This document shows positions 30,366 through 56,048 of a DNA stretch of 64,000 nt, piece by piece. The stretch's first letter is position 1. Each line of letters opens with the position of its first letter. Made by a program: the position numbers and the translations under genes. This stretch comes from a virus (Duplodnaviria; Caudoviricetes), in the IMG/VR virus record IMGVR_UViG_3300029305_003192. One strand, written 5' to 3'. Under the pieces are notes generated by a model that saw only the letters and a list, made by a program, of their open reading frames with translations, had not been told where the DNA came from and made no database searches.

Positions 30366-30462
30366 CAATTATACTATATATATGCACAATATTCCGATAT
30401 TACGGTCTAATCCCTGGCACATAGAAAATACCCAGATAACCATATGGTTATCTGGGTATAAA

Positions 30463-34831: not shown

Positions 34832-36892
34832 TCAGATATTCACGATGTTAGTATAATGCTGTGTTGTTGCACCTGTCTTCTGAATCTTTGGACCAAGTGG
34901 GTCGATGATAGGATTGATAAGGTTAACAACGTCTGTGATAATTTTGGATGAGTTGATTATATCTTTCATCCATGCTGGTAGATTAGTCATATCACGCGGT
35001 TTAGCTATACATGTGATAGACATAGTCCATTCATACTCATTAGATGACATAAGAATGTTCCGATAATAATTCTCGAAGATTTCTCTGTGCTCATAATATA
35101 GCTTCTTAAAAGGAACTGCTGCATCGGATTCTTTACTATTAAAGAATGCCTCTGGGTCATCACGCATCATGAGATACTTCTTCTTTGACATACCAGTATC
35201 CAGTGTAACTGGAACCAGGTCGACTTCAGCAGGGAATGCCATCTCTTCTGCAGGGTTAAATGCGTTCCAAAGATGCACCGCTTTATATCCCTGATTAGAC
35301 AATGGAGCTTTATATCTTGCAGCGGGATGAACCGTAAGCTGCTTATAGAGTGAGTTATCACCTTCCTGAAGCAGTACCTTAATCTCTGCTTCATATTCTC
35401 TTACAGCTCTTAGAATATTTCTCAAATCGATCTCCGGTGCAAGGATAATCTGGGTATCAATAAGCTCATGACATTTCTGTCTTACTGATTCCTTAGTACC
35501 GGCTTTCTTAAAGTCAAACCCAGCAACTACACGCTGGTTGTCGATGCCATTGATGAATTTACCCTCTTGGAGTAATACCTGACCAAAGTATCGTTTCTTA
35601 GCAGTACCAAATACGATAATTGGCCAATAAAGCTCGTTCTTCATTGCAAGCTTCTTACCCCACTCAGGGGCAATCTGTCTAGCCTCAGTAAATGATTCAA
35701 ATGCTTCTGAGATAGACATAGTCAGAATCATTGTGAAGATATTTACCGACTTAAATGTGAACTCATCCTTATTCTCAGTGATAGCATTCTTAAGTGAGTA
35801 AGCATACATAATATACTTAACTACCGAGATGAAGTTAGAGTCCGTGTCGATATAAAGTACCGCAGACTTATTAGTGTATCTAGTTCGACGTACTCTATCG
35901 AATATCTGGTGCTTATAAAGTACGAATACTTTGAGCATCTTAATGATTTCAAGCAGTATTGATTTAGAATCGTCACGTGCTACAGTATCACACCATTCTT
36001 CGCCCATAAAGTCGAATGTATCGATATCACCATTACGGAGAATGATGATAGAGTTGAGAAGCTCAGTATTAATTGACTGACAGAAAGGTATATTGAGGAA
36101 TTCGAAGAGATTATTCTTATAATACATCAGCTTGAGACAGTCCTCATCGGCGGAAGCAATTATTCTCGATATAATCATTGCCTCATCTTCAGTGATATTA
36201 AAACCGACCTTATCTGCAAGTCTATCGGCTACCTGCTTAGATGTTACTGGTGGTACTCTTGAGAATAATTTAAGCTCCTCGTCCGTAAGCTTTTCATAAT
36301 CATGTATGATATTCATCAGATATAATACAAACTCTGTCACGTTGACGAACTTGATATTGTCCGATATGAAGTTCTCGAAGTGACATGTTGCTGTCGAGAT
36401 GATTGCCTGACCCATAGCAGTAGTAGCCTGAGCAAGGTTGACATTGAATAGATGAAATTTCATGTAACCGAGGATACCATAGAGAGAGTTAAGCATAATC
36501 TTCTTGTTATTTTGTGCTAAGTCATACATCTGCCATTCTGTAGTACCTTTATCGAACGAATCCCTCTGTTTCTTGAGAGCCTTACGCTCTTTCATCAAGT
36601 CTGCAATCCATTCAGCAAGCAGACTCAGTTTCTGGGAATGTTGTACAAACATGCACCCATCCCCACCAAGGACAAGATTGTTTGTCAATATGAGTGATAT
36701 GACAACGGTCAATGATGAGCGTATGGATGTATTGCGATAGTTATTAACCATTGTACATTTAGGGTCCTTGACCTCTATATTATATATTTTACGTAGGGTC
36801 TTTTCCAGTACCTCTTCATCCCAATCAGGATGTGCGGTTCTAAGAACTTCTGAAGCCTGGGATACCCATTTATCTTCAAATCTTAGTGCCAT
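34832..36892 (-). CDS. Family B DNA polymerase, C-terminal (polymerase) subunit
   Basis: KIMLNSLYG (motif B), YIDTDS (motif C), KKRY; lacks exonuclease and motif A. Confidence 0.92.
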
Positions 36893-37044
36893 AATTTACC
36901 TCCTATATTTTTGCGTTATACTATTGATGATAACATCATTCTTCGCTAGAATATAGACTTGAAATGATTATTAATTAAACAACTCATGTAATGTATGCAA
37001 ACATATGTATGCACAATATTAATCCTAAAAGGAGGAATTGTAAT

Positions 37045-37644
37045 ATGTCATCTTTTGATTCAATGTTCGAAGGTCTCTTCGAGAACAACGATGAAGATAT
37101 TGCTGCTGGTGCCATGGAATCTACAGTAGGCGATGATTTTGCATTTCTCGATGAAGGTGCTGCTGAACTGACTCCCGCTGCTGAATCCGCTATTTTCCTC
37201 GAAACTCTTATGGATAGCTTCGATGATCCTAACGAGTTCGCAGATTATGCTATGGAAAATGCTGTATACTGGGAGACATACGGTCTCATCGACAATGCTA
37301 CAGAAGCCCTCGAAGCTGTTAAGAAGTTCCAGGTTGATAACTGGAAGCAGGTCAACTTCGAAAGACTCTGGAAGAGAGAGTGTATCCGTATCGAAGCTCG
37401 TAAGGATACAACTACTTGGAAGAAGTATGCTCTCCACAGAGGTAAGATGAGAGAAGCACGTGATGAAATCTTCCGCAAGAACAAGACTCAGGCTATGAAG
37501 AACGTTCGTGCTGCACAGGCTAACTCTAAGAGAAAGGTTGCATCCATGAACACATCCGGTTCAAAGGACCTCCAGTCCAGACTTAATAAGTCTATCTCTA
37601 AGAGTACTTCTGGTAAGGATCCTACAACAGGCAAGCCTTCCTAA
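37045..37644 (+). CDS. Putative internal head protein, acidic propeptide + basic mature part
   Basis: AMES/AAES/ATEA/ALEA sites then Lys/Arg-rich half; AGGAGG SD. Confidence 0.6.
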   Translation: MSSFDSMFEGLFENNDEDIAAGAMESTVGDDFAFLDEGAAELTPAAESAIFLETLMDSFDDPNEFADYAMENAVYWETYGLIDNATEALEAVKKFQVDNWKQVNFERLWKRECIRIEARKDTTTWKKYALHRGKMREARDEIFRKNKTQAMKNVRAAQANSKRKVASMNTSGSKDLQSRLNKSISKSTSGKDPTTGKPS

Positions 37645-37711
37645 CAGACTAATTATACCCAGATAACCATATGGTTATCTGGGTATTTTCTATGCACCAA
37701 GGGGGGTATGA

Positions 37712-37748
37712 CGTAATATCGGTATATAGTACGTATATATCATATTAG
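37712..37748 (+). promoter_or_regulatory. Early-type promoter
   Basis: CGTAATAT-N14-TATATATCATATTAG. Confidence 0.7.
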
Positions 37749-37960
37749 TGAGAAAAATATATTTATGATTATCAATTCTCAGTTGGGACACCGGACGCCC
37801 GATCACGTCCGGATTCTATATGGTTGTGGTATGACGATCATATAGTCTAGGATTTTAAGATTGGCGTGGTACATACCGACTGCGCCCCAGGGCCGTGGCC
37901 TCCTACCAAAAACCCACGGAATATATCAGGATGACCAAACTGGTCATCCTGATATATTTA
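37749..37960 (+). ncRNA. Candidate stand-alone sRNA with kissing loops and anti-SD loop
   Basis: Between promoter and terminator, no SD-led ORF; four hairpins; loops GGTATG/CATACC complementary; CCTCCT loop. Confidence 0.65.
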
Positions 37961-37971
37961 TATTTTTTTTG

Positions 37972-38661
37972 TTAAATGAGACGTCTAAAGCACTCCTCAA
38001 TCTTGTCCTTGACTTTAGAGAAGTCGCTTACTGATGCTACGAACTTATCGGCAAACATAGCCATTCTGTCAATCGCATAGTTGAGATTATATCGCTCAAC
38101 TTTCTTAAAGATATTAATATCTCCATGAGACAGTATGGATTTACGAGAATCGACTATTTTGTTGATTTGGTAATATACATCATGTCGATGTTCATATACG
38201 ACGAATCTGCAGAATACTAACAGTGCGTAGTAATTTTTATATTCCTTATTGATAGGCATTGCCATATCTCGGGCATAGTGCCACTGTTCGTTGATGAACT
38301 CTGATATATACATCATACGGTTCTTATTAATATCATCTATCACTCTGTCCGTAATAGATTCGAGCTGGTCGAGCTGGTCGATATATTTAGACCTAGCATC
38401 GTTACCATCAGTTATTGATAATATATTACGCATAGTATCTGTATACTCACCATGATACCAAGATAGGTTTATAGTTGTATCTTTCTTAAAGGTCTTCTTA
38501 CTGAGAGTAGCGAATTCCTTATCGAGTTTCTTGTTAAGGTGGATAGTAAACGGGTCATCTCTAAATACCGTATCCATGAGTTTCATGTATACGTCATATT
38601 CCTTAAGGGATGTCGGGTCATGATACCCACGCATGATTAAACTACTAGACATTTTATTCAT
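37972..38661 (-). CDS. Hypothetical late protein
   Basis: 229 aa; late-type promoter 38686-38697. Confidence 0.75.
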   Translation of the reverse strand: MNKMSSSLIMRGYHDPTSLKEYDVYMKLMDTVFRDDPFTIHLNKKLDKEFATLSKKTFKKDTTINLSWYHGEYTDTMRNILSITDGNDARSKYIDQLDQLESITDRVIDDINKNRMMYISEFINEQWHYARDMAMPINKEYKNYYALLVFCRFVVYEHRHDVYYQINKIVDSRKSILSHGDINIFKKVERYNLNYAIDRMAMFADKFVASVSDFSKVKDKIEECFRRLI

Positions 38662-42990: not shown

Positions 42991-43027
42991 CGTAATTTCC
43001 TCCTAGACCGGGTATATATCATATTAG
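42991..43027 (+). promoter_or_regulatory. Early-type promoter
   Basis: CGTAATTT-N14-TATATATCATATTAG. Confidence 0.7.
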
Positions 43028-43042
43028 TAGAAATATAAGAGA

Positions 43043-43092
43043 TATCGCTAAGTTATAGGGCACTTAGCGACGTATAAAAATAGCCCTTCATA
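43043..43092 (+). promoter_or_regulatory. Conserved 5' leader, H-type pseudoknot (copy 1)
   Basis: 9-bp stem TCGCTAAGT/ACTTAGCGA; loop AGGGC pairs with GCCCT 43083-43087; near-identical copy at 55986-56034. Confidence 0.7.
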
Positions 43093-43107
43093 GTAGGAGG
43101 TAATACT

Positions 43108-43503
43108 ATGAGAAACGTACTTGCAAACGCATTATCGCTCAATATGTTCAACCGTATGGTTCCAATGGATAACGATTATGGATATGCTGGTTTCGGTATA
43201 TCCGTAAAAGAGGTACGTCCAGAGGACGTGCCAAGGGACTGTGTGTCCATTATAGGACACACCGACACCGCTGCGGTGGTGTCATCAATGCTGGGATTTA
43301 ATGTCCCAGCAAACCGAATAGCCCATACAATAGAGAACGGTGACGTTCTCTTTGTGGCCCAGTACACGGGGCCACGACTCCCCGAGGGAGCCTCGAGGCT
43401 CCCTGAAGGAGGCATTATCCGGTTCTACCGGGTAATGGAAGTCGATCCGATACCCGACAACAACGGCTGTATCGGAGAAAGGAGGTTTTTCGTCGGCGAG
43501 TAA
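43108..43503 (+). CDS. acrIII-1: AcrIII-1 / DUF1874 (STIV B116, YddF-like) ring nuclease, anti-type III CRISPR
   Basis: NALSLNM, SIIGHTDTA (catalytic GH), NRI, GDVLFVAQY, PRLPEG motifs. Confidence 0.88.
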   Translation: MRNVLANALSLNMFNRMVPMDNDYGYAGFGISVKEVRPEDVPRDCVSIIGHTDTAAVVSSMLGFNVPANRIAHTIENGDVLFVAQYTGPRLPEGASRLPEGGIIRFYRVMEVDPIPDNNGCIGERRFFVGE

Positions 43504-55970: not shown

Positions 55971-55985
55971 TAGCAATAAAGGAAG

Positions 55986-56034
55986 TATCGCTAAGTTATA
56001 GGGCACTTAGCGACGTATAAAATAGCCCTTCATA
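55986..56034 (+). promoter_or_regulatory. Conserved 5' leader, H-type pseudoknot (copy 2)
   Basis: Same as 43043-43092 except one A fewer in the linker. Confidence 0.7.
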
Positions 56035-56048
56035 CTGGAGGTAATAGT

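Follow-up and report, generated by a model that had tools for sequence, protein, structure and literature searches.

On balance, we take the gap between two convergent genes of a jumbo phage to hold a stand-alone, accessory non-coding RNA cassette. In the proposed mechanism, the cassette would be inserted between these genes and headed by a conserved composite module, in which a terminator hairpin (T1) is followed by a phage-specific AT-rich promoter. The promoter would lead into ~165 nt of GC-rich, hairpin-forming, ORF-less cargo and then into a private terminator (T2), giving a ~210-nt RNA made early by the phage's own RNA polymerase. The slot would recombine, such that near-identical strains hold this RNA, either of two unrelated cargoes or none, and the RNA itself would be the functional product, acting in trans on a host factor that varies between strains.

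A promoter, cargo and terminator in a convergent gap

The window, by which we mean the whole 64,000-nt stretch of DNA that was analyzed, belongs to an IMG/VR virus record (IMGVR_UViG_3300029305_003192) of 108.7 kb that is estimated to be ~45% complete. An identical locus is present in a 239.6-kb contig (L029), and the phage is a ~240-kb AR9/PBS1-like jumbo phage of ruminant-gut-type metagenomes. Its DNA polymerase, encoded in the neighborhood of the locus, is nearest (~25% identity) to those of Bacillus phages AR9 and PBS1 and of staphylococcal jumbo phages, and the phage encodes a jumbo-phage-type beta subunit of a multisubunit RNA polymerase (RNAP). The elements of the locus, numbered by position in the window, are as follows.

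36991-37644, + strand: ORF of a 217-aa gene, the left neighbor of the slot
37655-37690, palindromic, no strand assigned: T1, terminator hairpin (stem region 37655-37686) and T-run, 3' of the 217-aa gene, from the terminator scan
37709-37752, + strand: promoter motif (two-block copy at 37712-37743), consisting of a CGTRAT block, a 13-nt spacer and an AT-rich TATATAT block
37753-37970, + strand: predicted RNA of ~205-218 nt, its 3' end in the U-run after T2
37765-37845, + strand: 26-codon ATG frame without a Shine-Dalgarno (SD) sequence, ~12 nt from the predicted 5' end, judged non-coding
37919-37970, + strand: T2, 19-bp stem (37919-37959) and U-run, from the terminator scan
37972-38661, - strand: ORF of a 229-aa gene, the right neighbor of the slot, convergent with the 217-aa gene

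The two ORFs leave a gap at 37645-37971, within which T1, a spacer, the two-block motif, an AU-rich tail, hairpins A-D and T2 follow one another from left to right. An earlier, sequence-only reading of this DNA had described a stand-alone RNA gene with its own promoter and terminator that it could not assign to a known family, and this outline was borne out. The window has 6 copies of the motif, among them that at 37712-37743, where chance predicts 0 (none in 100 shuffles), and the 108.7-kb record has 8; T2 joins its 19-bp stem to a T-run and ends right beside the stop codon (37972) of the 229-aa gene, which is convergent with it; the stretch headed by this repeated motif and closed by the private terminator holds no credible ORF; and a covariance-model search of Rfam gave no match for the RNA.

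Which polymerase would read such a promoter? The sigma-70-type promoter scan gave no match at 37709-37752, and a sigma-70 promoter was rejected for the motif. The early promoters of phage AR9 are long, conserved and AT-rich, are read by the injected virion RNAP, start transcription 6 nt downstream and are active before phage proteins are made (PMC5312081). By analogy, the unit is probably transcribed by the phage's own RNAP and probably early, "early" being used here for its likeness to these AT-rich AR9 promoters (PMC5312081). For the predicted RNA, the 5' end was placed from the promoter position by applying the 6-nt offset known from AR9 (PMC5312081), and the 3' end from the terminator.

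The RNA unit was searched for a credible ORF and none was found. Recoding of a stop codon to open a frame is unlikely: all three stops end long ORFs, though TAG is rare (among the 67 ORFs of at least 200 aa in the record, TAG ends 2, TAA 50 and TGA 15), and any read-through frame would pass the terminator and continue antisense to the neighboring gene. With Rfam 15 (including CRISPR-DR, tracrRNA, ToxI, 6S, ribozymes and riboswitches), no match at the RNA unit reached the gathering threshold, and at E <= 10 the region 37600-38050 returned only hairpin look-alikes of both terminators, far below thresholds. ARAGORN found 0 tRNA or tmRNA genes in the window. A known RNA family was rejected on these grounds, with no match in Rfam, gathering or permissive, and none in ARAGORN. 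The sole gathering-threshold Rfam match in the window is a group I intron at 140-476 on the + strand (RF00028, 56.8 bits, E = 9e-12).

Searches by sequence were similarly blank. No homologue of the RNA was found by blastn in phage and plasmid collections, an exact 24-mer of it had no match in viral contigs, and blastn and nhmmer over the whole 108.7-kb record and all fetched loci returned only the RNA itself and identical copies. A loop-anchored pattern gave 13 matches in metagenome and genome contigs (GTDB genomes), all of them chance matches inside coding sequences. No diverged homologue of the RNA was found in the viral, metagenome, genome, phage or plasmid collections searched.

The same motif heads other cassettes. 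Four of its 8 copies lie 73-76 nt upstream of strongly SD-led ORFs (131, 115, 95 and 129 aa), with SDs of the GGAGG type and a terminator at the end of each unit, and two copies head ORF-less units of ~210 nt, namely this RNA and a unit downstream of a GroEL-like gene. Each motif copy that was inspected is preceded by a hairpin and T-run. Two of these cassettes are located as follows.

43108-43503, + strand: 131-aa cargo with its promoter at 42991-43022; GC 50.8% against 40.7% for the genome
30140-30465, - strand: sister ORF-less cassette downstream of the GroEL-like gene, the unit running from 30384 down to ~30140, with a predicted transcript of ~210-220 nt

The 131-aa cargo matches PF08960 (STIV_B116-like, AcrIII-1 ring-nuclease family) with 31.1 bits, above the curated Pfam cut-off of 26. 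Pfam, PHROGs and NCBIfam gave no family for the 95-, 115- and 129-aa cargoes, and an anti-defense identity was rejected for them, the only AcrIII-1-like match being that of the 131-aa cargo. The leaders at 43030-43107 and 55973-56048 (both + strand) are nearly identical over ~50 nt from promoter to SD and precede unrelated ORFs of 131 and 95 aa. At 52.8% GC, the core of the RNA unit lies ~3 sd above the genome mean (40.7 ± 4.1%) and within the top 0.3% of tiles, and this high GC suggests acquisition from elsewhere. The AcrIII-1 cargo stands out in a similar way.

The ORF-less sister unit consists of a leader, a strong SD and an ATG followed directly by TAG, and is closed by a terminator. Its T1 is identical to that of the RNA unit (30430-30457, matching 37657-37684). 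The sister unit is ~94-96% identical in L009, whose polymerase is 73% identical in protein, and the L009 T1 carries a compensatory A-U to U-A change. The two identical T1 hairpins, with oppositely oriented promoters, bracket a 7.2-kb block that contains the GroEL-like gene, the polymerase and a Tad1/Acb2-like neighbor; homologues of this neighbor in L008 and L009 carry PF24729, and the 123-aa protein in the window has no Pfam match at E <= 0.01.

Cargo exchange at the slot among related phages

A fundamental question is whether related phages carry the same cargo at this position. Related contigs were drawn from public assemblies using the polymerase and the 229-aa protein, and at least 24 contigs encode the identical protein of this 226/229-aa gene. 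IMG/VR yielded no relatives when queried with the flanking proteins, with the polymerase, with T1 or with the promoter motif. The slot that follows the terminator-promoter module occurs in four states, with flanking genes that are 87-99.7% identical.

State 1, this RNA: the window, L029 and L030, three records that are all 100% identical
State 2, an unrelated 248-nt ORF-less cargo: L032-L034
State 3, an unrelated 335- or 391-nt cargo: L031 and L035
State 4, no cassette: L007 and the more distant relatives L012-L015
37690-37964, + strand: the block of 275 nt absent from L007, comprising spacer, promoter, RNA body and T2 stem

In the alignment to L007, window positions 36801-37689 correspond to L007 1532-645 and positions 37965-38612 to L007 648-1. 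The left flank of L007 is 98.8-99% identical, and T1 there runs directly into the end of the 229-aa gene. The slot is reduced to just 41-67 nt in L012-L015, whose polymerases are ~60% identical. Strains with another cargo are, at the DNA level, 96-99.7% identical in the 217-aa gene, 87-90% in the 229-aa gene and ~86% in T1 and promoter, and no similarity is detectable between the cargoes of L031-L035 and the RNA. Each cargo type in the relatives carries its own, different terminator, and a convincing SD-led ORF was found in none of the three cargo types. The variant cargoes of L031, L032 and L035 gave no Rfam match at E <= 0.5, and comparison of the variant cargoes with the phage collection gave no matches. 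When the other cargo types and the sister cassette were examined for a shared architecture, neither kissing loops nor a common motif were found in them, and the other cargo types carry only loosely similar C-rich words. The terminator-promoter module is kept where the cargo is swapped (L031-L035), and its upstream half, T1, is also kept in L007, which has no cargo, and in L009. Judged from these alignments, the slot is a recombination hot spot, and the RNA gene probably encodes an optional accessory RNA.

The two type-3 cargoes are 72% identical over 183 nt, and several pairs are kept by changes on both sides. These cargoes lie on the minus strands at L031:3302-3476 and L035:1478-1652, and compensatory changes between them are few. 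Type-3 cargo also contains a short SD-led frame in which the changes within the first nine codons (MARH.YRKI) are mostly synonymous, and it may encode a micropeptide. Separately, the contigs of some relatives stop at the T1 of the slot or shortly before it (L009:1-47, L008:1 and L010:1-6); these ends may be assembly breaks at the repeated module, which hints at a cassette in those strains too.

Predicted fold and possible roles of the RNA

The helices considered for the RNA body are the following, with pair probabilities from the predicted ensemble.

37791-37797 / 37806-37812, + strand: hairpin A, 7 bp with an 8-nt loop; pair probability 0.22
37816-37827 / 37834-37845, + strand: hairpin B, 12 bp including two G.U pairs, loop GGUAUG; pair probability 0.87-1.0
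37863-37870 / 37879-37886, + strand: hairpin C, 8 bp including two G.U pairs, loop with CAUACC; pair probability 0.22
37893-37898 / 37914-37919, + strand: hairpin D, 5-6 bp with a 15-nt C/A-rich loop; stem probability ~0.95
37780-37786 with 37876-37882, + strand: rival long-range helix, with inner extensions; pair probability 0.77

Hairpins A-D, as located by the sequence-only reading, were confirmed by reading the sequence, as was the exact complementarity of CAUACC in loop C to GGUAUG in loop B. Its choice of the plus strand also holds, with two G.U pairs in each of B and C and a better fold for the plus than for the minus strand (-77.8 versus -71.6 kcal/mol). Pair probabilities for B, D and the terminator are above 0.9 (0.87-1.0 within B), and loop B is unpaired at 1.0 in the ensemble prediction. 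The motif CCUCCU at 37899-37904 in loop D is predicted to be unpaired (0.9-0.99), in keeping with the exposed position that had been proposed for it (P at least 0.9).

For the compact tertiary fold of the same reading, the elements exist, but A and C reach a probability of 0.22 against 0.77 for the rival helix, and the core folds with a z of only -1.5. The long-range helix excludes A and C, leaves B at its tip and is present in the minimum free energy (MFE) structure, a rod-like fold. For the core (37755-37921, 167 nt), the MFE is -49.5 versus -43.3 ± 4.1 for shuffles, and 45 of 500 shuffles were as stable; the z of -5.8 for the whole unit is contributed by the terminator. Retaining A and C costs only 0.7 kcal/mol relative to the MFE in the best such fold, and the 6-bp duplex between loops B and C is calculated at -5.9 kcal/mol, so the fold first proposed is possible but not favored, and a kissing contact could tip the balance towards it. 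The proposed UGGG/CCCA closure of the junction overlaps the final pair of stem C. How unusual is the loop match itself? Of 5000 shuffles, 15 contained two hairpins of at least 6 bp whose loops match over 6 nt by Watson-Crick pairing, as did 5 of the 1300 genome tiles of 167 nt; such a match is rare per tile (0.3-0.4%), yet a few are expected per genome.

What would such an RNA do? The variability of the slot between strains, the kinship with the AcrIII-1 cassette and the foreign composition together favor a trans role in host-phage conflict over inhibition of translation by an anti-SD. It is possible, and we suggest it tentatively, that in host takeover or counter-defense the RNA serves as a decoy or mimic, or else acts by base pairing, with the GGUAUG and CCUCCU loops as predicted contact sites. 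A more specific version, in which the locus is an RNA-based counter-defense locus and its three unrelated cargoes are decoy or mimic RNAs matched to the immunity of different host strains, is decidedly unlikely. In that version, the cargoes would be exchanged via the conserved terminator-promoter module and fired early from an AcrIII-1-type cassette, and the present GC-rich RNA would have been captured from a host or another mobile element. For the broader reading as well, the link to counter-defense comes from one AcrIII-1-like neighbor of the same cassette type and from the variability of the slot.

The sequence-only reading had offered as a possibility another role, that of a translation inhibitor or decoy. 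In this model, loops B and C would kiss through 6 bp and the CCUCCU anti-SD of loop D would inhibit translation, either by pairing with SD sequences or as a decoy of the 3' end of 16S rRNA. We regard this as quite improbable, even though all of its elements are in place, the A and C fold is close in energy to the MFE and gains a stable loop duplex, the prediction leaves both loop B and CCUCCU open, phage genes do carry strong GGAGG-type SDs, and the loop match is found in only 0.3% of shuffles per 167-nt tile. Against it, ~0.4% of genome tiles have a similar match, the rival helix outweighs A and C (0.77 versus 0.22), and all copies (L029, L030) are 100% identical and offer no covariation. Moreover, when the RNA was paired with SD-bearing initiation regions, of which 133 were found in the phage genome, the energy averaged -21.8 kcal/mol versus -20.8 ± 0.7 kcal/mol for shuffled RNA and is thus no better, and the best target match is the antisense strand of the GC-rich AcrIII-1-like gene. 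Nor would one predict that near-identical strains lack a general inhibitor or carry unrelated RNAs in its place, a pattern that fits accessory cargo better, and the other cargo types lack the kissing pair and share only the loosely similar C-rich words.

Two further explanations dispense with a functional RNA. The unit could be a functionless remnant, in which a protein cargo was lost or scrambled through the recombination that also shuffles these cassettes and only promoter, filler and terminator were left behind, and we consider this rather unlikely. It would account for the empty slot in L007 and L012-L015, since a dispensable piece without function would also be absent in close relatives, and for the modest core z of -1.5; furthermore, the sister unit by the GroEL-like gene, with its leader, strong SD and ATG followed by TAG, resembles an emptied cassette. 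That sister cassette, however, is far better conserved than its protein-coding neighbors, and the RNA unit has no cassette-type leader, GGAGG SD or ORF fragment and no similarity to the rest of the genome or to related loci. Its GC content of 3 sd above the genome mean and its four hairpins, described as G.U-containing and strand-specific, also count against a remnant, and all three cargo types are ORF-less, with type-3 copies that keep several helices through changes on both sides. Alternatively, the 26-codon frame at 37765-37845 could be translated, with the hairpins being incidental. Apart from the presence of this ATG frame near the 5' end, the evidence argues against a micro-protein: the ~12 nt before the ATG contain no SD, whereas coding cassettes have strong SDs with the ORF 73-76 nt from the motif, the frame crosses hairpins A and B, and no homologous peptide frame occurs in the other cargo types. 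This makes a micro-protein highly improbable.

An accessory cassette whose product is a functional RNA is the reading that we prefer. If it is true, shuffling of the promoter-early stem-loop (PeSL) kind takes place in a jumbo phage and relies on the phage's own RNA polymerase, and the slot offers a natural allelic series of three unrelated RNAs and an empty state in otherwise near-identical genomes, an unusually clean basis for studying the function of such RNAs. It would also provide a search rule, namely a conserved terminator-promoter module followed by no ORF and a private terminator, by which more accessory RNAs could be found in uncultured phages. Phage non-coding RNAs are poorly catalogued, and RNA-based counter-defense, as in RNA anti-CRISPRs (Racrs) and viral single-guide RNAs (sgRNAs), has been recognized only recently. 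Should the RNA prove to be junk, the locus would still document cassette-driven genome plasticity.

Comparison with known systems

RsaE/RoxS are regulatory sRNAs of Firmicutes that pair with SD sequences through C-rich loops. The RNA described here resembles them in having a C-rich motif (CCUCCU) in a predicted open loop followed by a terminator; however, it has no sequence or Rfam relation to them, carries a single C-rich motif, has no target found, and is phage-borne and strain-variable. Racrs are solitary CRISPR-repeat units that mimic host repeats (PMC10651486), and viral sgRNAs are likewise RNA-based anti-CRISPRs (bioRxiv 10.64898/2026.06.01.729453 and 10.64898/2026.06.03.729762). Like both, this RNA would be a small phage non-coding RNA with its own promoter and rho-independent terminator that varies between strains; those RNAs often occur beside anti-CRISPR genes, and here the same cassette type carries an AcrIII-1-like gene. 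Those systems are defined by mimicry of the host CRISPR repeat or tracrRNA. As a Racr candidate, the RNA gave no Rfam CRISPR-DR match at E <= 10 and only chance hits in coding sequences in the GTDB loop scan. A viral sgRNA or tracrRNA mimic would have a guide leading straight into a repeat:anti-repeat stem, then a tracrRNA tail that fits a type II system of the host; as a candidate of this kind, the RNA gave no tracrRNA-like Rfam match at E <= 10, and its layout differs from an sgRNA in having hairpin A interposed between the 5' tail and the long stem B.

The promoter resembles AR9/phiKZ-like early promoters, in which long conserved AT-rich elements precede early-type small genes in phages with multisubunit RNAP genes (PMC5312081). 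Its sequence differs from the AR9 consensus, and it has an extra conserved upstream block. The unit as a whole is closest in layout to two kinds of mobile cassette. Morons, as described by Hendrix and colleagues for lambdoid and other tailed phages, are reportedly autonomous units of promoter, gene and terminator that interrupt pairs of genes lying next to each other in relatives. The present unit shares with them its own promoter, cargo and terminator, its position between two genes that are direct neighbors both in L007 and in more distant relatives, and its atypical base composition; it differs in its non-coding cargo and in its presumed lytic, early expression, from a promoter of the phage RNAP and not from a prophage.

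PeSL cassettes of T4-type phages have terminator-promoter motifs that flank variable small genes and mediate indels and replacements (PMC2839356, PMC4122927). Here, too, a composite of stem-loop terminator and early-type promoter is repeated in the genome, adjoins small non-core genes, also in the DNA polymerase region, and coincides with the edges of indels and replacements that distinguish close relatives (L007; L031-L035). PeSL promoters match the sigma-70 consensus of the host, whereas this phage has a non-sigma-70, phage-specific motif and its own multisubunit RNAP. PeSL cargoes are ORFans, whereas the three cargo types of this slot are all ORF-less. By its layout, the unit works like a PeSL without being a member of the T4-type family. 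As read from the DNA, it is a swappable moron- or PeSL-like cassette with a non-coding cargo, and the same type of cassette drives an AcrIII-1 gene elsewhere in the genome.
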